Shown here piece by piece: positions 674-49,708 of a stretch of DNA of 49,740 nt. Under the pieces are notes generated by a model. It was given only the letters and a program-made list of their open reading frames with translations, searched no databases and had not been told where the DNA came from. How positions within the stretch are numbered: the first letter of the stretch is position 1; every line of letters starts with the position of its first letter. Source of the DNA: Minisyncoccota bacterium (lineage in GTDB: Bacteria > Patescibacteriota > Minisyncoccia > Phycocordibacterales > JAGLPS01); the NCBI GenBank assembly GCA_023137185.1, contig JAGLPS010000018.1:1-49740 (forward strand), written 5' to 3'. Position numbers and translations under genes: made by a program.

Positions 674-1378
674 ATGCAAAAACCTCAATTTGTTGAAAAT
701 CAAATCTACCATATCTATAATCGTGGGGTTGAAAAAAGAAATATATTTCTTGATAAACAAGATTATCTCAGATTTATTCATAGCCTATTTGAATTTAATA
801 ACGAAAACACCACCATCAACACCCTGTTCCATTTTAATTCCCAAGCAATGGAGACTGAACCCCATTATTTAGAAAAAGGGAGAAAACCAAGAAAATTATT
901 GGTTGAAATTTTAATATTTACTTTGATGCCCAACCATTTTCATTTAGTCCTAAAACAGAAAAAAGAAAAAGGGATTATAAAATTTATGCAAAAATTGGGC
1001 ACCGGCTACACAATGTATTTCAATAAAAAATACAAAAGAGTTGGGGGTCTTTTTCAGGGAAGATTTAAAGCGGTTCTGGTGAAAGACGAAAGCCATTTTA
1101 TTCACCTTCCTTTTTATATTCACACTAACCCATTGGAATTAAAAACAAAAAAACCTCCCCATTATCGAGGTTCAACCTCGATAATGGGGAGCCTGGAGAA
1201 GTACCGTTGGAGTAGTTTCTTGGATTATATTGGAATAAAAAATTTTCCTTCTGTAACTTCCAGAGAATTATTTTTAGAGTTTTTTAACGGACAAGAACAA
1301 TACAAAAACGCTACCTATGAGTGGCTTAAAAATAAAGAAGAAGGCGAAAAAGAGATCAAAGAAATCAAGATTGACTGA
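674..1378 (+). CDS. REP-associated tyrosine transposase (RAYT, IS200/IS605-like Y1 HUH transposase family)
   Basis: HUH motif NHFHLVL; C-terminal FYIHTNP...YRWSSFLDY motif typical of TnpA_REP; REP pairs on both flanks. Confidence 0.85.
   Translation: MQKPQFVENQIYHIYNRGVEKRNIFLDKQDYLRFIHSLFEFNNENTTINTLFHFNSQAMETEPHYLEKGRKPRKLLVEILIFTLMPNHFHLVLKQKKEKGIIKFMQKLGTGYTMYFNKKYKRVGGLFQGRFKAVLVKDESHFIHLPFYIHTNPLELKTKKPPHYRGSTSIMGSLEKYRWSSFLDYIGIKNFPSVTSRELFLEFFNGQEQYKNATYEWLKNKEEGEKEIKEIKID
1161..1185. repeat. REP palindrome located inside the RAYT coding sequence
   Basis: ATTATCGAGGTTCAACCTCGATAAT flanked by CCTCCCC/GGGGAG; read in frame as PHYRGSTSIMGS. Confidence 0.9.
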
Positions 1379-4669: not shown

Positions 4670-4701
4670 ACTTGGAAGCTCAACTTCCAAGTGTGGTGTA
4701 A
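4670..4701 (+). repeat. TTGGAAGC hairpin plus TGTGGTGTAAT box
   Basis: CTTGGAAGCTCAACTTCCAAG followed by TGTGGTGTAAT. Confidence 0.75.
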
Positions 4702-15020: not shown

Positions 15021-15114
15021 AAATTACACCACATTTGGAAGCTCAACTTCCAAATGTGGTGTAATTTTATGTGTTTTAGGCATTCCGGACACTTTTGGAC
15101 ACTCAGTGTCCAAA
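15021..15114 (-). repeat. composite intergenic repeat (47-nt palindrome including the ATTACACCACA box, plus TTTGGACAC hairpin)
   Basis: AAATTACACCACATTTGGAAGC-TCAA-CTTCCAAATGTGGTGTAATTT (15021-15067) and TTTGGACACTCAGTGTCCAAA (15094-15114). Confidence 0.8.
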
Positions 15115-17241: not shown

Positions 17242-18066
17242 TTATTTCAAATATCCAAGCGCGCCGTATAGACCTCCAATCGCGCCAAGTTCTCCTTTTT
17301 TGATGACTGGAATATATGGAAAAGTTTCCAAAAGCTCCTTGAGATACTGCGTTGTTCGATGAAGATCTATACCAGGATGCCCAACAATCATAGGACCCCC
17401 CAACACAATCACTTCTGGAGACCAATACATAATCGTGTTATACAAACCGTACGCAAGCCTTTCTGAAAGCTCCTCCCACACGCCTTCTTCAGTAACATTT
17501 TCAGGATTTATGTTGAAACGCCTTTTAAGCGAAGAACCTGATATAAAATCTTCAAGAGTGCCGCATGGATTATCTCGCGGGAGAACTGCTCCTGAAAAAT
17601 CAATTATATGATGTCCGGGTTCAAAATTGGAAGTTGTAGAATCAATTGATCCATCAACTATCCGTACCCCACCGACACCAGTGCTTATTGTTAAATACGC
17701 GACAATCTTGTACCCCCTCCCAGCGCCAAAAAGCGCTTCCCCCAATCCAACAATTGCCGCATCATTTTCGAGATAAACCTGAGCGCCAATAGCTTTTTTA
17801 ATTTCCTCTTCTGCGGGCTTCCCTTCCCAGCCTTTTAGATGCGGAGACCGAACAAGTGTTCCCTTGTAGAGAGTACCCGCGAGACCGCCCGCCGCGGCTT
17901 TCACTTTTTGCCCTTCTGTCAATTCGCTAACAAGAGAAGATAACACATTCATTCCCTCTTGAAAATCAGAAGGCGTTTTGACAATTTTATGCGCACCTAA
18001 ATGCCTCCCCCCTTCGGATATTCCAACCCTCATTTTAGTTCCCCCAATGTCAAAAAGTATGTACAT
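17242..18066 (-). CDS. ROK family sugar kinase (glucokinase-like)
   Basis: N-terminal DIGGTKMRV ATPase motif and ROK-like length. Confidence 0.75.
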   Translation of the reverse strand: MYILFDIGGTKMRVGISEGGRHLGAHKIVKTPSDFQEGMNVLSSLVSELTEGQKVKAAAGGLAGTLYKGTLVRSPHLKGWEGKPAEEEIKKAIGAQVYLENDAAIVGLGEALFGAGRGYKIVAYLTISTGVGGVRIVDGSIDSTTSNFEPGHHIIDFSGAVLPRDNPCGTLEDFISGSSLKRRFNINPENVTEEGVWEELSERLAYGLYNTIMYWSPEVIVLGGPMIVGHPGIDLHRTTQYLKELLETFPYIPVIKKGELGAIGGLYGALGYLK

Positions 18067-18253
18067 CCCGTTAGAGATAGGAAGCGTTGTCTATACACGC
18101 CCCCGACATATAATTAAGTTGGTAATATCTAGACACAACGCGTATGTGGATTGAAACGCTTCCGTAGTGTGATTGATAGTTGTGAGTATACATATATTTA
18201 CATTATTCTAAGGATTGACGCTAATTCTTAAATGGGTTATCTCTAACGGGATA
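18065..18253. repeat. 189-bp element bounded by a perfect 15-bp terminal inverted repeat (ATCCCGTTAGAGATA / TATCTCTAACGGGAT)
   Basis: fills the whole PGI-stop to ROK-start spacer; internal GGAAGCGTT/AACGCTTCC and GCGTTGTGTCTA/TAGACAACGC pairings. Confidence 0.6.
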
Positions 18254-19363: not shown

Positions 19364-21118
19364 ATGGAACTGAATTTCATTTTTAATTTGAGTCTGATTG
19401 CAAATATTGTAAGTAGTGGGGTTGTCGCTCTCTTTATTCTTTTTACTACCTACAAAGAAGATCCCGCCGCGCGAAAATTTACACAAATAGCGTTTGCTAA
19501 TGCCGCATGGACATTATTTTACCTTCTCGGACAATTACTGCCCAATCCTCAAGATGCATTACTTGTTTTTAAATGGGGAATTTTTTTCCTTATCATACTT
19601 GCGTTCGCCTTTTTAGCTTTCACAATACGAAGTATAGAAAAATTTACAAAAAAGTCTTACAAAGTCTGGTTTCGGATTGGACAAGCGATCAAATTCTTTT
19701 TTCTCGCGCTTATCACCCTCGACATTGTTTTTGGAACAGAACTTCTTGTAAAAAACATTACTCATATAAAAACATGGGGTGTGCTTTGGCCTGATGCGGG
19801 ACGCTTTTTTATCCCCTATCTTGTGTATTTTATGGGTTGTTTCACCATTGGGTTTTTGTTGATTCTCTTTGCGGCGACACACATAGAAGAAAAAGAGCGC
19901 AACAAAATCAAATACCTTAACTGGGCAGCTATCCTTGCAGGCATTGGTGGTTCTACATTGTATTTAATGTGGTACGACATACCTTTCCCTCCAGTTGGAG
20001 GATGGGTAATTCCTGTGTATATCTTAGGACTGTTTTACTCAATCACTAAATTCAAACTTTTCAATATGAGGGTTATTACCACAGAACTGTTCACCCTCAC
20101 TATTTGGATGCTTATGTTTGGACAGATCCTTCTTTCAACCAACATAGAGCTTTTTATTCTTGATAGTGTTATTTTTTTAGTAACGATATTTTTCGGTCTG
20201 TTAACCATACAAAATAGTATCGCTACTGAAAAACAACGGGAGGAACTTGAAAAGGCAACAAGAAAACTTGATAAAACAAATCACAAGCTTTCCGACCTTA
20301 ATCAGAATCTTCAACAAAAAGTTGACGAGCAGACAAAAGAAGTACGGAAAGCATACGAAATTGAAAAGGAGGCGCGTATTGAACTTGAAAAATTAGACAG
20401 GGCAAAGAACAGTTTCCTTCTCACAACCCAACATCACCTGCGGACGCCACTTACTGTTGTAAAAGGTTTCCTTGATCTTTCTACACACGAAGAAAACAAT
20501 GTGCAAATTCGTTCGTATATGATAAAGGCGACAAAAGCAATCAACAGTATGGCAGAACTTGTAAATGAATTTCTAAACGTTTCCCAGCTTGAAGTCGGTG
20601 AGACGATGCTTAATCCCCAACCGACGAATATTGCTAATATCGTTTCAGAAATACAAGGTGAACTTAAACTTGCGATAAAAGAGAAAGATCTATCGTTTGC
20701 TTTAGACTTTAGTGAAGAAGCGCAACATACCAAGGCTATTATTGATTCCAAAATGATAAAAGCGGCGCTCTATAATCTTATCGATAATGCAGTGAAATAC
20801 ACGCCACACGGAAAAATTACAATTATCGGAGAAATATACACTCACCCTATTGAAAAAACAGAAATGCTGCGACTAAAGATTAAAGATACGGGAATAGGAA
20901 TTAGAAAAGAAGATTTGAAAAATGCGTTTCAACATTCTTTTGAGAGAGGGGTAGAAGCAGAAAAAGCAAATAAAACTGGAAAAGGGATAGGATTAATTCT
21001 TTCCAAAAATATAATACAAGCGCATCGCGGAAATATTTTTGTTAACTCAGAGGGGGTTGGAAAAGGGACAACGCTTACGGTTGAAATTCCAATCGGTGTT
21101 AAGCGATTGTGGAGATGA
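19364..21118 (+). CDS. sensor histidine kinase with N-terminal multi-TM sensor (paralog 1)
   Basis: H-box HHLRTPLTVV, N-box DNAVKYT, G-boxes DTGIGI and GKGIGL; about 7 TM helices. Confidence 0.85.
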   Translation: MELNFIFNLSLIANIVSSGVVALFILFTTYKEDPAARKFTQIAFANAAWTLFYLLGQLLPNPQDALLVFKWGIFFLIILAFAFLAFTIRSIEKFTKKSYKVWFRIGQAIKFFFLALITLDIVFGTELLVKNITHIKTWGVLWPDAGRFFIPYLVYFMGCFTIGFLLILFAATHIEEKERNKIKYLNWAAILAGIGGSTLYLMWYDIPFPPVGGWVIPVYILGLFYSITKFKLFNMRVITTELFTLTIWMLMFGQILLSTNIELFILDSVIFLVTIFFGLLTIQNSIATEKQREELEKATRKLDKTNHKLSDLNQNLQQKVDEQTKEVRKAYEIEKEARIELEKLDRAKNSFLLTTQHHLRTPLTVVKGFLDLSTHEENNVQIRSYMIKATKAINSMAELVNEFLNVSQLEVGETMLNPQPTNIANIVSEIQGELKLAIKEKDLSFALDFSEEAQHTKAIIDSKMIKAALYNLIDNAVKYTPHGKITIIGEIYTHPIEKTEMLRLKIKDTGIGIRKEDLKNAFQHSFERGVEAEKANKTGKGIGLILSKNIIQAHRGNIFVNSEGVGKGTTLTVEIPIGVKRLWR

Positions 21119-21127
21119 TGGGATTCG
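21107..21127 (-). repeat. duplicated 3' end of tRNA-Ala(GGC) (nt 56-73 plus trailer), overlapping the kinase stop codon
   Basis: TTGTGGAGATGATGGGATTCG is identical to 21266-21286. Confidence 0.85.
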
Positions 21128-21268
21128 GCTATCCGTATTTTCTTGCTAGAAAATCGGACAGCCCGGCCTCGCGCCGTCGCGCTCCGGCCTTCGATTCCCA
21201 CGAATGCGTCGCATTCTCCAAAATAGACACAAGAAAAAACTCCCCGAAGGGAGCCTTTTCTTGTGTTG

Positions 21269-21341
21269 TGGAGATGATGGGATTCGAACCCACTACCTCA
21301 GCTATGCCATAGCCGCGCTCTACCAATTGAGCTACATCCCC
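21269..21341 (-). tRNA. tRNA-Ala(GGC)
   Basis: hand-folded 73-nt cloverleaf, anticodon loop ATGGCAT, G3:U70, TTCGAAT T-loop; CCA not encoded. Confidence 0.9.
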
Positions 21342-22240: not shown

Positions 22241-22267
22241 TGTGGACCCATGGAGAATCGGACTCCC
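22241..22267 (-). pseudogene. tRNA-like 3' fragment (T arm plus acceptor 3' strand) downstream of tRNA-Ala(CGC)
   Basis: TGTGGACCCATGGAGAATCGGACTCCC resembles the TGTGGACCGTGGGGAATTCGAATCCCC of the intact gene. Confidence 0.5.
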
Positions 22268-22296
22268 GCTTGCGCAACTTGTCCTCCTAAATTTTG

Positions 22297-22479: not shown

Positions 22480-22515
22480 CAGAGAAAATTTCCAGACTTA
22501 TGGTTCTTCCGAGAG

Positions 22516-22535
22516 TCGGAATACCAGGATTTGAA
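22516..22535 (-). pseudogene. diverged tRNA-Pro-like 3' fragment
   Basis: TCGGAATACCAGGATTTGAA aligns with the TCGGGATGCCGGGAATCGAA of the intact tRNA-Pro; the 5' T-stem strand is missing. Confidence 0.4.
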
Positions 22536-22641
22536 TCTTACAGGTTCTGTACACCTTGTGGATTTTTCAGAAAAAATCTCACAAGGTCTTTCGGCACTCC
22601 AAGTATTCGCGCCTCAACCTTTACCTACCTAAATTTTTCTG

Positions 22642-23850: not shown

Positions 23851-23991
23851 AAAAAACTCCTTTCTTTTCTTTGTTTAAGAACAAAATTTAAAAGTTACAC
23901 ATTTACATCTATACTCATTTAGACAGATTTTTTGTAAAACATCAACAAACCGCGGTTGTTTCTTTTAAGCGTAGATTGCTATAATTTCAAT

Positions 23992-25746
23992 GTGAATCTA
24001 CATTTCATATACAACATAAGCATAATGCTGAATATCACAATGGGAGGCGTTACCGCCCTTTTTCTTTTTTTTACCGCGTATAAGAAAAATGATGTCGCTC
24101 GTAAACTCACCCATCTTGCAGTCGCCGACGTCAGCTGGGCAGCAACACATCTAATCGCTCAAAATACTGCCGATGCCGATTTTTCCCTTTTGATGAACAA
24201 ACTATCGGTACTTTTTATCGCGGTTATAGCATATTGCAGTATTGCATTTTCAATTTTGGCCATTCGACAATTAACTGGAAAATTACATAAAGGCTGGCTG
24301 TATTTCAGTCAGATTGCAATGCTTTTTTTTGTTATGTTAATTTCCGCAGATATTGTCGCTAACACGGAGTTGTTAATCAATCAGGAAAACTATGCTCGCG
24401 CATGGGGGTCAATCTGGCCAGGAAGAGGAGTATTTTTTGACCTTTTCCCTGTGTATTTTATTGGCAGTTTTGTTGTTAGTTTTTTCCTTCTTTCAAAAAC
24501 TTTATCGAGACCTGAGATAAATATCGAGGCAAGAAAAAAAATTCAATATTTCAACCTTTCTCTTTTTATGGCCTCTTTTGGGGGAATACCATATTGGATT
24601 AATTGGTATGATATTTACATCCCGCCACTTGGAGGATTCTTCATTCCTCTTTATATTTTTGGCCTCTTTTTTTCAATCACAAAATTTCATCTCTTCAATG
24701 TTCGTGTCGTTACCGCAGAATTATTTATTATAACCGTTTGGATGCTTATGTTCGGACGAATTCCTCTTGTGCAGGACAATACTTTTATTCTTTTTGACAT
24801 TGGAATATTTATACTTACAGTTATATTCGGACTATTAACTATCCAAAGCGTAATCGAAAGAGAACAGCAGAGAGAGCGACTGAAATTGGCAACAGTAAAA
24901 TTTGATAGGGCAAACCGAGAACTTTCCGATCTCAACAAAAATCTCCATCAAAAAGTAAAAGAAAAGAAAGAAAAAGTGTATAAAGCATATGAAATTGAAA
25001 AGGAGGCGCGTATTGAACTTGAAAAATTAGATAGGGCGAAAGACAATTTTCTACTTACTACCCAGCACCACCTTCGTACACCACTTACTGTTGTTAACGG
25101 ATATCTCGACGTTATCCTAGGAGAGGAAAAGAATCCTAAAATTCATTCATATATGGTCAAGGCAACACAGGGTGTAAAGAGTATGATTGAGTTGGTAAAT
25201 GGATTCTTAAATGTGTCACAACTTGAAATTGGTAAGGCTATATTAAACCCCCAACCAACACATATTTCTGACATTGTTTCTGAAATACAAAACGAACTAC
25301 ATTCAATAGTAGAAAGAAAAAAACTCTTTTTTACTTCTCATTTCTCCGAAGATGCGCAGAACGCAAAAGTGGCAGCGGACAGGAAAATGATTAAAGCATC
25401 TCTCTACAACATCATAGATAACGCGATAAAATATACTCAAAAAGGTGGCATTACAGTTACAGGCGAAATGTTTATTCATCCGATTGAAAAAAGTAAGATA
25501 TTGAGATTGAAAATAAAAGACACGGGAATGGGGGTAAAAAAAGAAAATCTAAAAGGTGTTTTTGAGAAAATCCTTGAACGAGAGGCAGAAGCAAAGAAAG
25601 CAAATAGACAAGGAAAAGGCATCGGACTAGTTCTCGCCAAAAATATGATACAAGCGCATCACGGAAATATTTTTGTTGACTCGGAAGGGGTTGGGAAAGG
25701 AACAACGTTTACGGTTGAGATACCAGTAGAAGAAAAGATGCTGTAA
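23992..25746 (+). CDS. sensor histidine kinase with N-terminal multi-TM sensor (paralog 2)
   Basis: same architecture and long identical peptide blocks as 19364-21118. The GTG at 23992 aligns with the paralog-1 start; the longest ORF starts at 23956. Confidence 0.85.
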   Translation: MNLHFIYNISIMLNITMGGVTALFLFFTAYKKNDVARKLTHLAVADVSWAATHLIAQNTADADFSLLMNKLSVLFIAVIAYCSIAFSILAIRQLTGKLHKGWLYFSQIAMLFFVMLISADIVANTELLINQENYARAWGSIWPGRGVFFDLFPVYFIGSFVVSFFLLSKTLSRPEINIEARKKIQYFNLSLFMASFGGIPYWINWYDIYIPPLGGFFIPLYIFGLFFSITKFHLFNVRVVTAELFIITVWMLMFGRIPLVQDNTFILFDIGIFILTVIFGLLTIQSVIEREQQRERLKLATVKFDRANRELSDLNKNLHQKVKEKKEKVYKAYEIEKEARIELEKLDRAKDNFLLTTQHHLRTPLTVVNGYLDVILGEEKNPKIHSYMVKATQGVKSMIELVNGFLNVSQLEIGKAILNPQPTHISDIVSEIQNELHSIVERKKLFFTSHFSEDAQNAKVAADRKMIKASLYNIIDNAIKYTQKGGITVTGEMFIHPIEKSKILRLKIKDTGMGVKKENLKGVFEKILEREAEAKKANRQGKGIGLVLAKNMIQAHHGNIFVDSEGVGKGTTFTVEIPVEEKML

Positions 25747-27129: not shown

Positions 27130-27429
27130 TTAATAACTTCGCCCCATAGAAGCAAAAATCGCTTCTCCTTCGCGGCAGCCCTTGCATAAACATTTATCGC
27201 CATATTCTGGCCGATATTCTACCTCATTAGTGCTTCCGCAAGTATCACATTTTTTTGCTTTCTTAATTTTACACTCTTCGCAGTGCCCTTCTGGCACTCT
27301 TGAGGGACAAACAGGCAATTTTTTGAAATCGTCTTTTGTTAACTTATGTCTGCAAAAGCAGCAAAAATTAGAGTCAGGAAAAAATATAGTCCGCTCGCAA
27401 TTTGGACAAACAAATGCTTTCTCTCCCAT
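27130..27429 (-). CDS. Cys-rich zinc-ribbon protein
   Basis: CPNC...CCFC, CEEC...CDTC and CLCKGC pairs; AAAAGGAGG SD upstream. Confidence 0.5.
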   Translation of the reverse strand: MGEKAFVCPNCERTIFFPDSNFCCFCRHKLTKDDFKKLPVCPSRVPEGHCEECKIKKAKKCDTCGSTNEVEYRPEYGDKCLCKGCREGEAIFASMGRSY

Positions 27430-27543
27430 TTCTGTCCTCCTTTTTTAGGGTTCAATTTTCTAGCTGAAAATTAGCACAGCAAACTTATAAGGTCAAACTC
27501 AAATTTCACATACATCCAAACGCTGTGGACCCTAGCGGATTTG

Positions 27544-27612
27544 TCCCGATATAATTTATTATATCGCGGATCCTCGATTTTTCTAAAAGTATCAACTTTT
27601 GGAAAATCGGGG
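27544..27612. repeat. 69-nt structured insertion in the T loop of the split tRNA (between U55 and C56, +/-1)
   Basis: TCCCGA...TCGGGG termini; 48-nt core identical to 27941-27988. Confidence 0.8.
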
Positions 27613-27632
27613 AACCGCTGACCTCCTCATTG

Positions 27633-27881
27633 TCCCGAAGAACAAGAAGTGGCAACGACTATGTTCTTCGCGATCCCGTGAATAATGAACGATGGAGGCG
27701 GAAGTTTTTGAGCATTTTGGTGGACCCTAGGAGATTCGAACTCCTGACCTCCTCATTGCAAATGAGGCGCTCTACCAACTAAGCTAAGGGCCCACCAAAA
27801 GGCTCAACTAATTTGCATAAAATGCACTTTTGTTAACGGGATCTCGAAAAATATATTCACTTCGTTCATTATTTTTCGGGA
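27633..27881. other. 249-nt insertion in the anticodon loop (G35/C36) of the split tRNA, carrying the intact tRNA-Ala(UGC)
   Basis: TCCCGAA...TTCGGGA termini, hairpins next to both ends, GATCCCG/CGGGATC and GAATAATGAACGA/TCGTTCATTATT pairings around the nested tRNA. Confidence 0.7.
27718..27793 (-). tRNA. tRNA-Ala(UGC), CCA encoded
   Basis: hand-folded 76-nt cloverleaf, anticodon loop TTTGCAA, G3:U70. Confidence 0.92.
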
Positions 27882-27885
27882 CAAA

Positions 27886-27905
27886 CCTGCCTGCCGGCAG
27901 GCAGG
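27886..27905. repeat. 20-nt perfect GC-rich palindrome CCTGCCTGCCGGCAGGCAGG inserted between nt 31 and 32 of the split tRNA
   Basis: perfect palindrome; related to CCTGCCTACCGTAGGCAGG at 33704-33722. Confidence 0.8.
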
Positions 27906-27918
27906 TGAGGCGCTCTAC

Positions 27919-27989
27919 TCCCGAAAATCACTTGAGATTTTCGCGGATCCTCGATTTTTCTAAAAGTATCAACTTTTGGAAAATCGGGA
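27919..27989. repeat. 71-nt structured insertion in the D loop of the split tRNA (between G18 and G19)
   Basis: TCCCGA...TCGGGA termini; 48-nt core identical to 27564-27611. Confidence 0.8.
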
Positions 27990-28071
27990 CAACTAAGCTA
28001 AGGGCCCCCTTATTCAGAAAAGTTTTTATACTTTACTAAAAAATCCCCTGCGGGACAAAATCCATTCTACC

Positions 28072-29037
28072 TTATTTCCTAGTCAGCGCAAGAGTAACAA
28101 GATGGTCCAAAAAGTGAGGGAACTCCGTTCCTCCCTCCGCAAGCGCTTTTGGAAGAAGGGACTCGGGGGTAAGCCCCGGAAGAGTGTTTGTTTCCAAAAG
28201 ATAAACACCGCGAGGAGAAATTATGAAATCCGAACGCGAGTAGTGGCGCAAGTGGAGCGCGTTATGCGCCTCTTTCGCCGCATATTGAATTTCATTCTTT
28301 ACATCCCTTTCAAAATGCGCGGGACAAATTTCTTGGCTCTCACCGCTGTATTTCGCGTTGTAGTCAAAAAACTCGCTTGTTTCAGGCTGAATAATTTCAA
28401 TGGGAAACAACGGATATAATTTTTCTCCTCTAAAATTTTCAACCACCCCACAGGAAGCTTCGCGTCCGCGGATAAATTCTTCAACAAGCGCCGACGGAGA
28501 ATGCGTAAGCGCTTCCGCGACCGCGTCCTCAAGCTCTGGAAAGCTTCTGACAATCCGCACCCCGACCGACGAGCCTGCCGAAGCCGGTTTTACGACACAA
28601 GGATGCGGAAAGTTTTTAAAAATATCAAGAAGTATCTCTTTAGATACAGTGTCTTTTTTTACGACAATATGTCGGGGCATTTTAAGACCACGATTTTCAA
28701 ACGCTCTTTTGGAGAGAACTTTGTTCATTCCAAGAGCCGAACCGAAAACTCCCGAGCCCGTATACGGAACGCTAAAATTATCAAGAAACCGCTGAACTTT
28801 GCCGTCTTCCCCATACGCCCCGTGCAAAGCGTTGAAAATGACATCTACTCTCTTCAACACTCTTTCAGGATTGCGAGGGACACCTCCGCTATGCCACGTG
28901 CCGTCTTTTGAAATCAAGATATCGTGACCAACATATTTTTCAGGTAAGTGTTTCAAAACACTTGCTCCAGTATTAAGAGAGACTTCATATTCATTTGAGG
29001 GACCTCCTCTAATGACTCCAACAACTATCTTAGACAT
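28072..29037 (-). CDS. ddl: D-alanine--D-alanine ligase
   Basis: EYEVSLNTG and ALHGAYGEDGKVQ motifs plus an ATP-grasp C-terminal half. Confidence 0.92.
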   Translation of the reverse strand: MSKIVVGVIRGGPSNEYEVSLNTGASVLKHLPEKYVGHDILISKDGTWHSGGVPRNPERVLKRVDVIFNALHGAYGEDGKVQRFLDNFSVPYTGSGVFGSALGMNKVLSKRAFENRGLKMPRHIVVKKDTVSKEILLDIFKNFPHPCVVKPASAGSSVGVRIVRSFPELEDAVAEALTHSPSALVEEFIRGREASCGVVENFRGEKLYPLFPIEIIQPETSEFFDYNAKYSGESQEICPAHFERDVKNEIQYAAKEAHNALHLRHYSRSDFIISPRGVYLLETNTLPGLTPESLLPKALAEGGTEFPHFLDHLVTLALTRK

Positions 29038-31057: not shown

Positions 31058-31561
31058 TTACTGCTGTAATAAACGGACATCAAGAAGTTCAACTTCAAAA
31101 ATAAGCGTAGCATTTTCAAGCGGATGCCCCGCCACTTTTCCATATGAAAGTTCAGGAGGAATCGCAAGTTTTCTAATACCTCCTACCTTCATTCCTGCAA
31201 ATCCTTTATCCCAACCTTCAATGACCTGTCCTGCTCCAAGTACAAACTGGAATGGCTGATTACGATCGCGAGAACTATCAAATTTTGTCCCATCGGGAAG
31301 TGTGCCGACATAATGAACGGTGAGAACTGTGCCGGAGATAGCTTCAGCACCATCTCCTATTTTTACATCCTGAACAAGTAGTCCTTCTGGAAACTGCTGT
31401 TTTTGTTCCATACTTTTATCTGGTGTTAAGAATTGATCTAAGTTTCCCACGGCGCCAAGAAAAGAAAACCACTGCTGTCCGAAAACGAAAAAGATAATTC
31501 CTATAACAATAATAATTATCAAAACCAGCTGATTTTGAGTCAATTTTTTCATCCCGTACAA
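31058..31561 (-). CDS. membrane-anchored FKBP-type peptidyl-prolyl cis-trans isomerase
   Basis: N-terminal TM; FKBP core YVGTLPDGTKFDSS...GAGQVIEGWDKG...IPPELSYG. Confidence 0.85.
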   Translation of the reverse strand: MYGMKKLTQNQLVLIIIIVIGIIFFVFGQQWFSFLGAVGNLDQFLTPDKSMEQKQQFPEGLLVQDVKIGDGAEAISGTVLTVHYVGTLPDGTKFDSSRDRNQPFQFVLGAGQVIEGWDKGFAGMKVGGIRKLAIPPELSYGKVAGHPLENATLIFEVELLDVRLLQQ

Positions 31562-31745
31562 AATAGGACGCGGACAGTAAAAACCGCATCTCCTAATAAC
31601 ATATTCTTATAATATCGACTTAACATATATATTTCACTCTTCCGCTGCGTCCGCGATTTCGTACGGGATTCATAATAGTTTTTTTTAGTGTTTTCCACCT
31701 ACTCCCATATACTTTAACTATACTATGCAGGGTTTGACGTGTACA

Positions 31746-46272: not shown

Positions 46273-46420
46273 TAAGTAACACTAACACAAATATCCCCCA
46301 AAATCAAGGGAATCAGGTAATGTCTAAATACTTCTGACATTTTTGATAAAAATTAGTTCAATTTCATCTTGCAACGCGCCGTAATTACGTTCCCGAAATT
46401 ATCTGAAGGCTCCACTTCCA

Positions 46421-46445
46421 ATTATCGAGGTTCAACCTCGATAAT
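46421..46445. repeat. REP palindrome ATTATCGAGGTTCAACCTCGATAAT
   Basis: perfect copy 5 nt after the stop of paralog A. Confidence 0.9.
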
Positions 46446-46450
46446 TCTCC

Positions 46451-46891: not shown

Positions 46892-46991
46892 AAATTTAAT
46901 TAATACCTAATAATAACCTCGCCCTTCTCTGTTTCCAAATAAGGAATCACCAAACCGTTTATAATTTCTCTTATTATCGCACTTTTTGAGG

Positions 46992-47016
46992 ATTATCGAG
47001 GTTGAACCTCGATAAT
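46992..47016. repeat. REP palindrome ATTATCGAGGTTGAACCTCGATAAT
   Basis: perfect copy upstream of paralog A, on the flank of the AbiE pair. Confidence 0.9.
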
Positions 47017-47065
47017 CTCTCTTGTGAAACCGATTGAATGTATGTGGTGAAAAGATTGTTCGTAT

Positions 47066-48358
47066 TTATTTTAGTAAATCATCAAAATCGCATCTGATTA
47101 GATCTTCTTTCCGAAGAACAATCTGCTCTTTCTGGTTTAGGTTATCAGCAGTAACACGAACAAGTTTTGTTGTCAGGGTGTCGCCAACAATTTCATAGTT
47201 AATTTTCTTCAAATAGATCTCAATTTTCTCGTAGAACAATGATGCATATTCCTTCTGTTTTTTCTCCGATGTCGACCTGCTGCTAGAACCATTTGTTGAA
47301 AACTCAATGTTGTCACTCACTATATTGTTAATCGGGAATGAAACTTCGATGTCTTTGAAAAGAAACCAGTACTCGCTCAAGTTGCATATAATACGCACGC
47401 GGTTACCCTCTTTTGTACTGTATTCAAAAATAAAGGAGAACACATCGGTGCAAAAATCTTCAAAAACACGCACCCCCTCAAACTTTGACACAGTTCTGAT
47501 TTTATACGAATCGCGTAACTGAAAGAATGTGTCGTGCCAATTTGCGAGCCAGTTTGTGACAAACCGAGAATCAAAAAATAGCGGTGTTAAATCATTTTTT
47601 AGATTTTCCTCGCTTACATTATTCATCTTCACCGCAAGTTTAGTAAATAATGTCCGATAGTCTTTCGCTTCAGCGACATTTTTTGCTTTTAGATAGTCGA
47701 GGTCGGGCACGATTTTCTTGTTCATATACCAGAGCAAATCGTAAATATCACGTCCTTTTTCTTCGTATATAGCTTCTCCCACACCTCGTGTCCCGCGCAA
47801 GAAGATCGCAGCAATTTTACTCGCCATGAGAGAAGAAAGGTTGTATGTTCGAATTACAAACGACAGCTGTCCGTGATTCTGTGGCATTCTCTCTGTCACA
47901 ACGTCGCCGGGTGGAGTAAACGGATTGAGGTCAATTTTCACGTAGATCCATTCGGAAGCGTAGCCCTCTATCAAACTACCAGCTCGGAATTTAAGTGTTA
48001 TACCTCGATTGTTTGTAATAGAGATTTTCAAAAATTCCGAGTCAATACTGTAAACTTTTGCAAAGTGTTTTTCGGCTTCTTCTTTGAGTCCATTGAGAAA
48101 ATCGTTATCAATCTTGTGGCTTACCTCAAAATCCAAGTCTACGGACATACGATCAAGGTCATAGCAAATACGGAGTGCCGAACCGCCATACATTATCCAT
48201 TTGTTGTATTCGGGATGGTGATAGATGAAATCGAGAACATAAAACTGCAACTCTTCTTTAAGAGCATTGAGCCGCGTCTCGGGATCAGTAACGCTAAAGC
48301 CGTAGGCCGAAAGACCGTCAAGGTTGCTTTTCAGGACTGTTAGTATCTGGTCACTCAT
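47066..48358 (-). CDS. nucleotidyltransferase AbiEii/AbiGii-family toxin with a C-terminal extension
   Basis: YGGSALRICYDLDRMSVDLDFEV signature of the DUF1814/AbiEii family; 430 aa. Confidence 0.78.
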   Translation of the reverse strand: MSDQILTVLKSNLDGLSAYGFSVTDPETRLNALKEELQFYVLDFIYHHPEYNKWIMYGGSALRICYDLDRMSVDLDFEVSHKIDNDFLNGLKEEAEKHFAKVYSIDSEFLKISITNNRGITLKFRAGSLIEGYASEWIYVKIDLNPFTPPGDVVTERMPQNHGQLSFVIRTYNLSSLMASKIAAIFLRGTRGVGEAIYEEKGRDIYDLLWYMNKKIVPDLDYLKAKNVAEAKDYRTLFTKLAVKMNNVSEENLKNDLTPLFFDSRFVTNWLANWHDTFFQLRDSYKIRTVSKFEGVRVFEDFCTDVFSFIFEYSTKEGNRVRIICNLSEYWFLFKDIEVSFPINNIVSDNIEFSTNGSSSRSTSEKKQKEYASLFYEKIEIYLKKINYEIVGDTLTTKLVRVTADNLNQKEQIVLRKEDLIRCDFDDLLK

Positions 48359-49553: not shown

Positions 49554-49654
49554 AAAAAATTTTTAATACCTGATAATAACCTCGCCTTTTTCTGTTTCCA
49601 AATAGGGAATCACCAAACCGTCTACAGTTTCTCTTATTATCGCACCTTTTGAGG

Positions 49655-49679
49655 ATTATCGAGGTTGAACCTCGATAAT
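49655..49679. repeat. REP palindrome ATTATCGAGGTTGAACCTCGATAAT
   Basis: perfect copy upstream of paralog B. Confidence 0.9.
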
Positions 49680-49708
49680 TTGACTCGACAAAAGAAACCT
49701 CTGCCCCT

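Follow-up and report, generated by a model that had tools for sequence, protein, structure and literature searches.

A tRNA-Ala(UGC) gene in a Patescibacteria contig, split by four insertions and with an intact copy inside one of them: probable inactivation by palindromic mini-elements and replacement by an element-borne tRNA

The window analysed here is a stretch of 49,740 nucleotides from a Minisyncoccota bacterium (assembly GCA_023137185.1, contig JAGLPS010000018.1), and on its minus strand it contains a tRNA-Ala(UGC) gene that is split into five pieces by four insertions, the third of which holds a second, intact tRNA-Ala(UGC) gene. The question raised by this locus is whether the split copy is still a gene, whose intervening sequences are removed from the transcript, or what is left of one. 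An earlier note on this DNA had raised the possibility of a functional multi-intron or split tRNA gene, and had offered as an alternative a redundant gene hit by loop-targeting mini-elements, one of which brought a replacement tRNA. It is this alternative that fits the evidence reported below, in particular the defective tRNA copies of related genomes and the synteny with the D-Ala-D-Ala ligase gene, ddl: as far as sequence alone can tell, a resident tRNA gene has quite probably been inactivated by hairpin mini-elements that leave no target duplication, and functionally replaced by a tRNA that an element carried.

Read in order on the minus strand, the five pieces (Table 1) join into a 73-nt sequence, GGGCCCTTAGCTTAGTTGGTAGAGCGCCTCATTTGCAATGAGGAGGTCAGCGGTTCAAATCCGCTAGGGTCCA, which ARAGORN calls as a tRNA-Ala(UGC) with the G3:U70 pair; the coordinates and sequences of the pieces, as given in the earlier note, are exact when the region 27300-28250 is read on that strand. 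In the raw locus both ARAGORN and Rfam miss the split copy and detect only the nested one, with its encoded CCA. At 73 of 73 positions, A57 among them, the joined sequence is identical to a tRNA gene that stands uninterrupted in a different Patescibacteria genome (CAZQSY010000003.1, locus L290); that gene scores 73 bits on Rfam RF00005. The sizes of the four insertions could be reproduced, as could the perfect palindrome between nt 31 and 32; at none of the insertions is a target base lost or duplicated. Units A, B, B', C, D and E start with TC(C/G)CG and end with CG(A/G)GA or CGGGA, and are thus hairpins of the YCCCG...CGGGR type. An exact 48-nt repeat is common to insertions 1 and 4 (0 matches in shuffled sequences), and the 502-nt region folds far more stably than its shuffles (z = -9.4), with the ends of the inserts pairing mutually, flush at the junctions. 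The leader and trailer of the nested tRNA are themselves complementary (TTGAGCCTTTTGGT / ACCAAAATGCTCAA), an inverted repeat that prolongs the acceptor stem. Elsewhere in the window there are five further elements with TCCCG termini, against 0.2 expected from shuffles.

Which of the two copies was there first can be read from their surroundings. Ddl, LeuRS, AlaRS, BipA and a pilin are encoded in the window, which is bacterial, and comparison of the Ddl protein, whose best match among species representatives is 61% identical and which leads to Patescibacteria/Paceibacteria, bears out the assignment to Patescibacteria. Most of 80 related loci have a tRNA-Ala(UGC) gene directly downstream of ddl and in the same orientation; since the split copy occupies this place, 65 nt past ddl, gene order identifies it as the resident, ancestral tRNA-Ala(UGC) gene, and the nested copy as the incomer. 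The two copies differ only at positions 51, 52, 62 and 63, which make up two compensatory pairs in the T stem, and at position 57. According to the earlier note these compensatory changes argue that the split copy was or is functional: pairing was indeed kept while the copies diverged, but this shows only that they diverged as functional genes before the insertions, because both versions of the T stem, as well as A57, are found in intact tRNA-Ala genes of relatives and thus represent two natural alleles rather than evolution after the split. In one relative (L085, Ddl 68% identical) the gene is intact, has the AGCGG/CCGCT T stem, and equals the spliced sequence save for G57. The closest relative (L084, Ddl 82% identical) is uninformative: its contig ends 146 nt past ddl, with no tRNA in that stretch. 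Exact-pattern scans for an uninterrupted allele with the 3' flank of the window, and a scan of viral contigs for the flank of the nested tRNA, returned no match.

The earlier note had suggested a search of related genomes for tRNA genes interrupted at the same places. Such copies were found, at the same loop positions and mostly in a defective state. The breakpoints compared were those in the D-loop (17-22), the anticodon arm and loop (26/27, 35/36, 43/44) and the T-loop (54-57), and the four breakpoints of the split gene lie in the same D-loop, anticodon arm-loop and T-loop regions. Across 253 tRNAs, the end points of fragments peak at 26/27, with others in the T-loop. In locus L045 a tRNA-Ala piece (1-13) is followed by an open reading frame (ORF) for a GIY-YIG protein; then comes a second piece (1-35), broken at 35/36 exactly as in the window and followed by a hairpin, TTCCGATTCT...AGAATCGAGAA, that encloses a truncated GIY-YIG ORF; a new tRNA-Ala stands last, and the interrupted copy runs off the end of the contig. 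Loci L069, L009, L207 and L127 start with tRNA nt 1-26, continue with a palindrome that exactly replaces the anticodon arm (27-43; TCCCGATGNNCATCGGGA in the first three, TCCCGCTGGCCAGCGGGA in L127) and with nt 44-55, and end with an ORF of 80-90 codons and an intact copy of the same tRNA, after which L069 and L009 have an additional 3' piece from position 56. The exact exchange of the anticodon arm for TCCCGATGNNCATCGGGA is seen in more than 15 loci, and exact replacement of 27-43 occurs in tRNAs for Ala, Gly, Pro, Val and Thr. L032 and L290 consist of nt 1-21, a D-loop hairpin (CCCGCCCG...CGGGCGGG), nt 22-28, an ORF and an intact tRNA, with internal deletions in the interrupted copy; L292 has a 5'-truncated copy with the same type of D-loop hairpin, adjoining an intact copy. 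Single hairpins thus interrupt the D-loop in L032, L290 and L292, and a double one in L216, where paired TCCCG-type hairpins recall insertion 1 as those in the T-loop of L222 recall insertion 4, in defective tRNA copies in both cases.

The palindrome of insertion 2 also has relatives, of the form CTGCCTGC..GCAGGCAG, in L045, L052, L066, L156 and L200; a palindrome of this type can interrupt the D-loop of a tRNA copy that is defective, as in L156, and one such example comes from a Bacteroidales genome. In different phyla, palindromes of both types turn up repeatedly in tRNA copies (D-loop, anticodon arm, T-loop), next to a stand-alone GIY-YIG gene of 80-90 codons. As in the window, an interrupted or partial copy in the relatives stands beside an intact copy of the same tRNA, and this holds for every related locus that was read in detail; those copies that lack the anticodon arm or the 5' end cannot be rescued by splicing. 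Two points of method affect these comparisons. The intron mode of ARAGORN, applied to all loci, gave mostly chimeric calls across neighbouring tRNAs, which were discarded. In the 16-base palindrome scan about 277 chance matches are expected in 596 Gb, and isolated matches in GC-rich genomes were ignored for this reason, so that the matches used are only those in the context of a tRNA or GIY-YIG gene, plus perfect palindromes. As a separate observation, in loci L090-L209 the perfect palindrome TCCCGATGTACATCGGGA and its close variants are dispersed repeats between genes, far from any GIY-YIG gene, in several phyla that include Planctomycetota and Bacteroidota; in some cases they form tandems with related TCCCGA...TCGGGA palindromes.

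The ORFs that accompany the interrupted copies encode GIY-YIG domains (PF01541, E 1e-13 to 1e-18), and the solved structures closest to them are those of two UPF0213 proteins, EF2693 and BH0048, and of SLX1, a structure-specific endonuclease; in a 2006 survey the prokaryotic SLX1-like proteins are minimal stand-alone GIY-YIG domains of unknown role (PMC1564403). With four of these GIY-YIG proteins as queries, 79 loci were returned, mostly from Patescibacteria, but also from Omnitrophota, Bacteroidota, Planctomycetia, Elusimicrobia, Dehalococcoidia and further groups. At 49 of the 79 a tRNA on the same strand starts between -15 and +120 nt from the end of the ORF, and these downstream tRNAs represent eleven amino-acid identities; the palindrome is present no more than 110 nt upstream of the ORF at 41 loci, and at many a 5' fragment of the same tRNA lies upstream. 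No variation is seen in the CCCG/CGGG pairs of the palindrome, and the pairs beside them covary; judged by its sequence, it is under selection. No description of a module of GIY-YIG gene, tRNA and palindrome, or of tRNA introns in this phylum, was found in the full-text literature searched.

These results can be interpreted as follows. Palindromic mini-elements would have invaded the D-loop, the anticodon stem/loop junction, the anticodon loop and the T-loop of the resident gene at the DNA level. Each unit is a hairpin, its ends of the TCCCG...CGGGA type and its interior self-complementary but variable, and the 20-mer of insertion 2 belongs to a second type of palindrome. The composite insertion of the anticodon loop would have delivered the complete tRNA-Ala(UGC) with its CCA, which would now supply the function. 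Transcription of this nested copy probably reads through from the region upstream of the resident gene, with RNase P and 3' processing then freeing the tRNA, while the outer gene would have been inactivated by the insertions, its pieces being a young relic that appears not to be spliced. The hairpins would belong to an element family found across phyla, which in full form comprises a tRNA 5' part (1-26), the palindrome as an exact substitute for the anticodon arm (27-43), a stretch of nt 44-55, the gene for a UPF0213/SLX1-like GIY-YIG protein of 80-90 residues, and the intact tRNA; the duplicated tRNA segments that flank the ORF could act as portable homology arms, by which the cassette would home into an orthologous tRNA gene after a break. 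Mobilisation of the hairpins could be the work of a structure-specific nuclease, the candidates being the GIY-YIG protein and the Y1 transposase that is encoded near the start of the window. SLX1 cuts branched and stem-loop DNA, and a nuclease related to it may target the hairpins formed by a tRNA gene that is single-stranded or extruded; we propose that this is the reason why the loops are hit. It is a more tentative suggestion, and one that we still rank as likelier than tRNA splicing in a bacterium, that the palindromes and the GIY-YIG gene together form an undescribed class of structure-guided mobile elements, which would insert hairpins into the stem-loops of tRNA genes, or exchange them there, with no duplication of the target, and would bring their own tRNA-derived homology arms.

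Some observations weigh against the idea of a gene overrun by mini-elements. The outer gene has kept each of its 73 nt, and the four insertions are base-exact, as would also be expected if reconstitution of the tRNA mattered. This preservation of the exons is the single point that favours a function of the outer gene; it could equally reflect a precise mechanism of insertion, or the youth of the insertions, to which the identity of the two copies of hairpin A over a 48-nt stretch (48/48) points. A tblastn search of the window with the two GIY-YIG proteins of L045 yielded no GIY-YIG ORF, and the arrangement of an 80-90-residue GIY-YIG ORF between a partial and an intact tRNA does not occur there, so that the hairpins of the window would be ORF-less derivatives, or elements mobilised in trans. 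(The proposition that all hairpin units are deletion derivatives of hairpins carrying a GIY-YIG gene was dropped, as only L045 supports it.) In 70 loci with full-length GIY-YIG ORFs, flanking inverted repeats were not above chance, and the link between the nuclease and hairpin mobility is for this reason associative only. Exact-pattern scans of genome, viral and metagenome contig collections yielded no further copies of hairpin A, and none of the collections scanned contained an empty-site allele or a donor.

Table 1. Coordinates of the split and nested tRNA-Ala(UGC) copies, of the insertions and their units, and of associated features in the window.
Feature	Coordinates	Strand	Details
Piece 1, nt 1-18	27990..28007	-	begins 65 nt past ddl stop codon
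Piece 2, nt 19-31	27906..27918	-	
Piece 3, nt 32-35	27882..27885	-	TTTG
Piece 4, nt 36-55	27613..27632	-	
Piece 5, nt 56-73	27526..27543	-	followed by CAG, hence no encoded CCA
Insertion 1, D-loop, between G18 and G19	27919..27989	-	71 nt; units A + B; no target duplication
Hairpin unit A (insertion 1)	27948-27989	-	TCCCGATTTTCC...AATCGAGGA
Hairpin unit B (insertion 1)	27919-27947	-	TCCGCGAAAATC...GATTTTCGGGA
Insertion 2, between nt 31 and 32	27886..27905	-	20-nt perfect palindrome CCTGCCTGCCGGCAGGCAGG; 'Q' palindrome family
Insertion 3, anticodon loop, between G35 and C36	27633..27881	-	249 nt; unit C + cassette D + unit E
Hairpin unit C (insertion 3)	27842-27881	-	
Cassette D (insertion 3)	27674-27841	-	holds nested tRNA; ends TCCCGTTAAC...TTCACGGGA
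Hairpin unit E (insertion 3)	27633-27673	-	
Nested intact tRNA-Ala(UGC)	27718..27793	-	encoded CCA; ARAGORN; Rfam 72.8 bits
Insertion 4, T-loop, at 55/56 (+/-1)	27544..27612	-	69 nt; units A' + B'
Hairpin unit A' (insertion 4)	27571-27612	-	identical to unit A save first base
Hairpin unit B' (insertion 4)	27544-27570	-	B-type ends, unrelated palindromic interior
Terminator-like hairpin between ddl and split tRNA	28043..28056	-	GTCCCGCAGGGGAT, then T run
ddl (D-Ala-D-Ala ligase)	28072..29037	-	conserved upstream neighbour of split copy
Y1 transposase, REP-associated (IS200-like)	674-1378	+	PF01797; HFHLV and YIHTNP motifs
REP (repetitive extragenic palindromic) sequences	535-565, 595-619, 1154-1192, 1432-1462, 1493-1531, 46419-46447, 46990-47018, 49654-49680		TATCGAGGTTSAACCTCGATA

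Other explanations have to be weighed against this one. The first would keep the mini-elements and change the enzyme: the hairpins would be elements of the REP/REPIN type, moved by the Y1 transposase of the window and not by a GIY-YIG protein, with the single-stranded loops of the tRNA gene as targets. Y1 (IS200/IS605) transposition acts on single-stranded hairpin DNA and produces no target duplication; the window does encode a transposase with HUH and Y motifs, flanked by its own REP palindromes, one of which lies in frame inside the transposase ORF and adds about 13 residues to it; and the sequence ATCGAGG, which forms the left REP arm, is found where units A and B meet. However, this 7-nt stretch is all that the REP consensus TATCGAGGTTSAACCTCGATA, which is otherwise unlike the TCCCG...CGGGA units, shares with the inserted hairpins. 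The tRNA region is without any REP copy, there is no constant target tetranucleotide before the insertions, and the TCCCG palindromes accompany the GIY-YIG gene across phyla. On balance we regard a role of the Y1 transposase as the mover of these hairpins as unlikely.

A second explanation, to which we give little credence, agrees that the outer gene is dead as a tRNA, but holds that it has been retained as a promoter and a tRNA-like processing scaffold for the cargo of the element, which would be the nested tRNA in the window and the GIY-YIG mRNA in the relatives. The insertions would then lie in loops, and the palindrome would replace the arm exactly, because of selection for a scaffold that can fold. 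Consistent with this proposal, no sigma-70-like promoter is predicted directly 5' of the nested tRNA, the ORF of the relatives always begins within a few nt after the 5' part of the resident tRNA, the replacement of 27-43 is exact in all five kinds of tRNA listed above, and the outer ends are paired in the minimum-free-energy fold. On the other side, promoters of Patescibacteria are poorly modelled, so that a missing match to the consensus is weak evidence, and the 5' copy of the relatives has no 3' acceptor strand and thus cannot provide a complete tRNA-like fold.

The explanation that the earlier note had put forward, a functional multi-intron tRNA, would require that the bases of the hairpins be cut and the exons religated by an unknown bacterial pathway, with the nested tRNA freed from the anticodon-loop intron. 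In its favour, the exons rebuild a sequence identical to that of a real tRNA gene, and the insertions are all flush, located in loops and strongly structured. A repeated sequence is shared between insertions in the transposable introns of the Thermoproteales, and the sequence common to two of the insertions here can be likened to it. The remainder of the evidence is adverse. At the four junction pairs we enumerated bulge-helix-bulge motifs (splice sites in 3-nt bulges, a 4-bp helix between them, and flanking helices), allowing G-U pairs and a shift of the bulge by up to 2 bases, and no candidate had both flanking helices. No group I or II intron or small ribozyme was detected with Rfam at gathering thresholds over the whole window, or at E<=5 over 27400-28120, where the nested tRNA was the only match. 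EndA- or RtcB-type proteins are found neither among the window ORFs scanned against Pfam nor in the precomputed annotation of an overlapping contig, a result that applies to the window only. In addition, the locus has an intact isoacceptor copy; the same hairpins occur in copies of the relatives that are beyond repair by splicing, since they are without the anticodon arm or the 5' end; and the outer gene encodes no CCA, whereas the nested copy and several relatives do. The proposal of a functional split gene is thus not supported, for want of a splicing motif or ribozyme, and because of the intact nested copy and the defective state of the interrupted copies in relatives; we consider it very improbable. 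The same holds for the more general notion that TCCCG...CGGGA hairpins are true intervening sequences, cut from the transcript at the hairpin base by an unknown bacterial activity and followed by ligation; the small SLX1-like GIY-YIG protein, with RNA or transcribed DNA as its substrate, is a conceivable cutter. If true, the locus would give rise to two tRNA-Ala(UGC) species, and Patescibacteria would have a new kind of tRNA splicing.

That the locus is an artefact of assembly, mis-joined over the repeated tRNA segments and the 48-nt repeat, is a negligible prospect: it does hold repeats of 13-48 nt, and one Logan contig stops within hairpin A, but three independent assemblies of different samples agree at every base (the other two, ERZ23498471, with a 46-kb contig, and ERZ23498485, are 100% identical over the locus), which makes a chimera unlikely, every repeat is shorter than the read length, and many unrelated genomes assemble to analogous architectures. 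A Logan contig spans the first part of the locus. What looked like an indel of 531 nt when the window was set against contig L001 turned out to be only a scaffold gap of Ns.

The proposed elements can be compared with several known systems. Free-standing GIY-YIG homing endonucleases occur in tRNA gene clusters of phages, as in the case of SegB of T4 (PMC2330249, PMC13096335), where likewise a GIY-YIG gene lies amid tRNA genes, and where its presence is linked to the adjoining tRNA region being preferentially inherited or duplicated. The phage protein SegB is larger, whereas here we deal with a stand-alone UPF0213/SLX1-like domain of 80-90 residues that belongs to cellular genomes and is absent from the window. 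SegB is not known to give rise to nested genes, palindromes or tRNA fragments. Some integrative elements enter tRNA genes at the anticodon loop or T-loop and rebuild the gene with a copy of their own, with tRNA fragments at attL and attR (10.1101/2022.07.05.498093). They resemble the present case in their target, in breakpoints that fall in loops, in the supply of a working replacement and in the fragments left behind; they differ in that the elements described here are only 20-500 bp long, are nested (5' piece, whole gene, 3' piece) with no direct 3' duplication, and include hairpin insertions without a repeated core. No integrase is present among the scanned window ORFs, and the split gene has the structure of a simple insertion without a duplicated core.

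Mobile palindromes, such as REP/REPIN-RAYT sequences, IS200/IS605 miniatures, the Rickettsia palindromic elements and the GC clusters of yeast mitochondria (PMC1458961, PMC4478555), are similarly short and self-complementary, multiply in the genome, and land in genes at structurally tolerant places. What sets the present hairpins apart are YCCCG...CGGGR termini conserved across phyla, the association with a GIY-YIG gene, and a strong preference for the loops and arms of tRNA genes. Absence of target duplication is a feature that they share with the palindromes mobilised by Y1 transposases. With the multi-intron, split and permuted tRNAs of archaea (Thermoproteales, Nanoarchaeum; PMC10714607) the locus has in common non-canonical interruptions of the D- and T-loops, perfect exons, and related inserts at different positions; the differences are the bacterial host, the absence of a bulge-helix-bulge, the nested intact copy, and the defective interrupted copies of relatives. 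Group I introns in bacterial tRNAs also interrupt the anticodon loop, sometimes with a homing endonuclease (PMC3984707), but no ribozyme core is detectable here, and all inserts but one, at 20-71 nt, are much shorter than such an intron could be.

The other tRNA genes of the window have remnants next to them as well, and partial tRNA copies adjoin all four intact tRNA genes. The tRNA-Ala(GGC) gene at 21268-21341 (minus strand) is followed by a 140-nt element and then by an exact copy of its own nt 56-73 (21110-21127), which overlaps the stop of a histidine-kinase ORF (19364-21118); the element comprises a GC-rich core, a TCCGA...ACGGA hairpin and, in antisense orientation, a copy of the tRNA 3' end that a small hairpin interrupts. 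Behind tRNA-Ala(CGC) and tRNA-Pro(CGG) there is in each case a 3' tRNA fragment that has diverged, at 22242-22271 and about 22515-22537 (minus strand). Several tRNAs (for Ala, Val, Leu and Pro) have conserved elements of two types, placed either within the T-loop (55/56) or beyond it: a GC-rich type 1 (CGGAGC..AGGCGAG..GGGTCGCGG..CCCGTGAC) in L021, L069, L080, L085, L032 and at 21128-21267 of the window, and a type 2 (TTGAGCAT...GTACAGAANCTGTAAG) in L004, L044, L069, L079 and at about 22538-22640 of the window, the motif TTGAGCAT being one that also flanks the nested tRNA in insertion 3. Neither type corresponds to an Rfam family, even at permissive thresholds.

The genome is unusually rich in small palindromic repeats. 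Two intergenic miniature elements (18066-18251 and 31552-31668) have terminal inverted repeats of 14 and 12 nt that begin with TCCCGT, and are bounded by apparent 4-bp direct repeats (TACA, TTCA), unlike the tRNA insertions. One intergenic palindrome family, ACTTGGAAGC..GCTTCCAAGT, is found at 4670, 6550, 10296, 15021, 29486, 42657 and 49070, and another, TTTTGGACAYTNARTGTCCAAAA, at 15093, 16634, 22456, 29512 and 42727. Two paralogous histidine-kinase genes (19364-21118 and 23956-25746, plus strand), about 71% identical in nucleotide sequence over about 1.1 kb, bracket the tRNA cluster; a 'tRNA-???' called by ARAGORN at 19962-20053 is a false call inside the first of them. Near the end of the window there is a gene for an AbiEii-type nucleotidyltransferase toxin of a type IV toxin-antitoxin system (47066-48358, minus strand).

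If the interpretation of the split copy as a gene overrun by mini-elements holds, the locus is an unusually clean snapshot of selfish elements in the act of colonising tRNA genes, their hairpins placed precisely in the three loops and the host kept alive by a replacement tRNA. A concrete role would then follow for at least these small stand-alone UPF0213/SLX1-like GIY-YIG proteins, with the DNA of the tRNA gene and the palindrome as their substrates. The many tRNA fragments and odd tRNA calls of Patescibacteria would also be accounted for, with a bearing on tRNA annotation and on estimates of genome completeness. For claims of introns the case is a caution, as 'perfectly spliceable' tRNA genes in bacteria can stem from duplication-free insertions at the DNA level.

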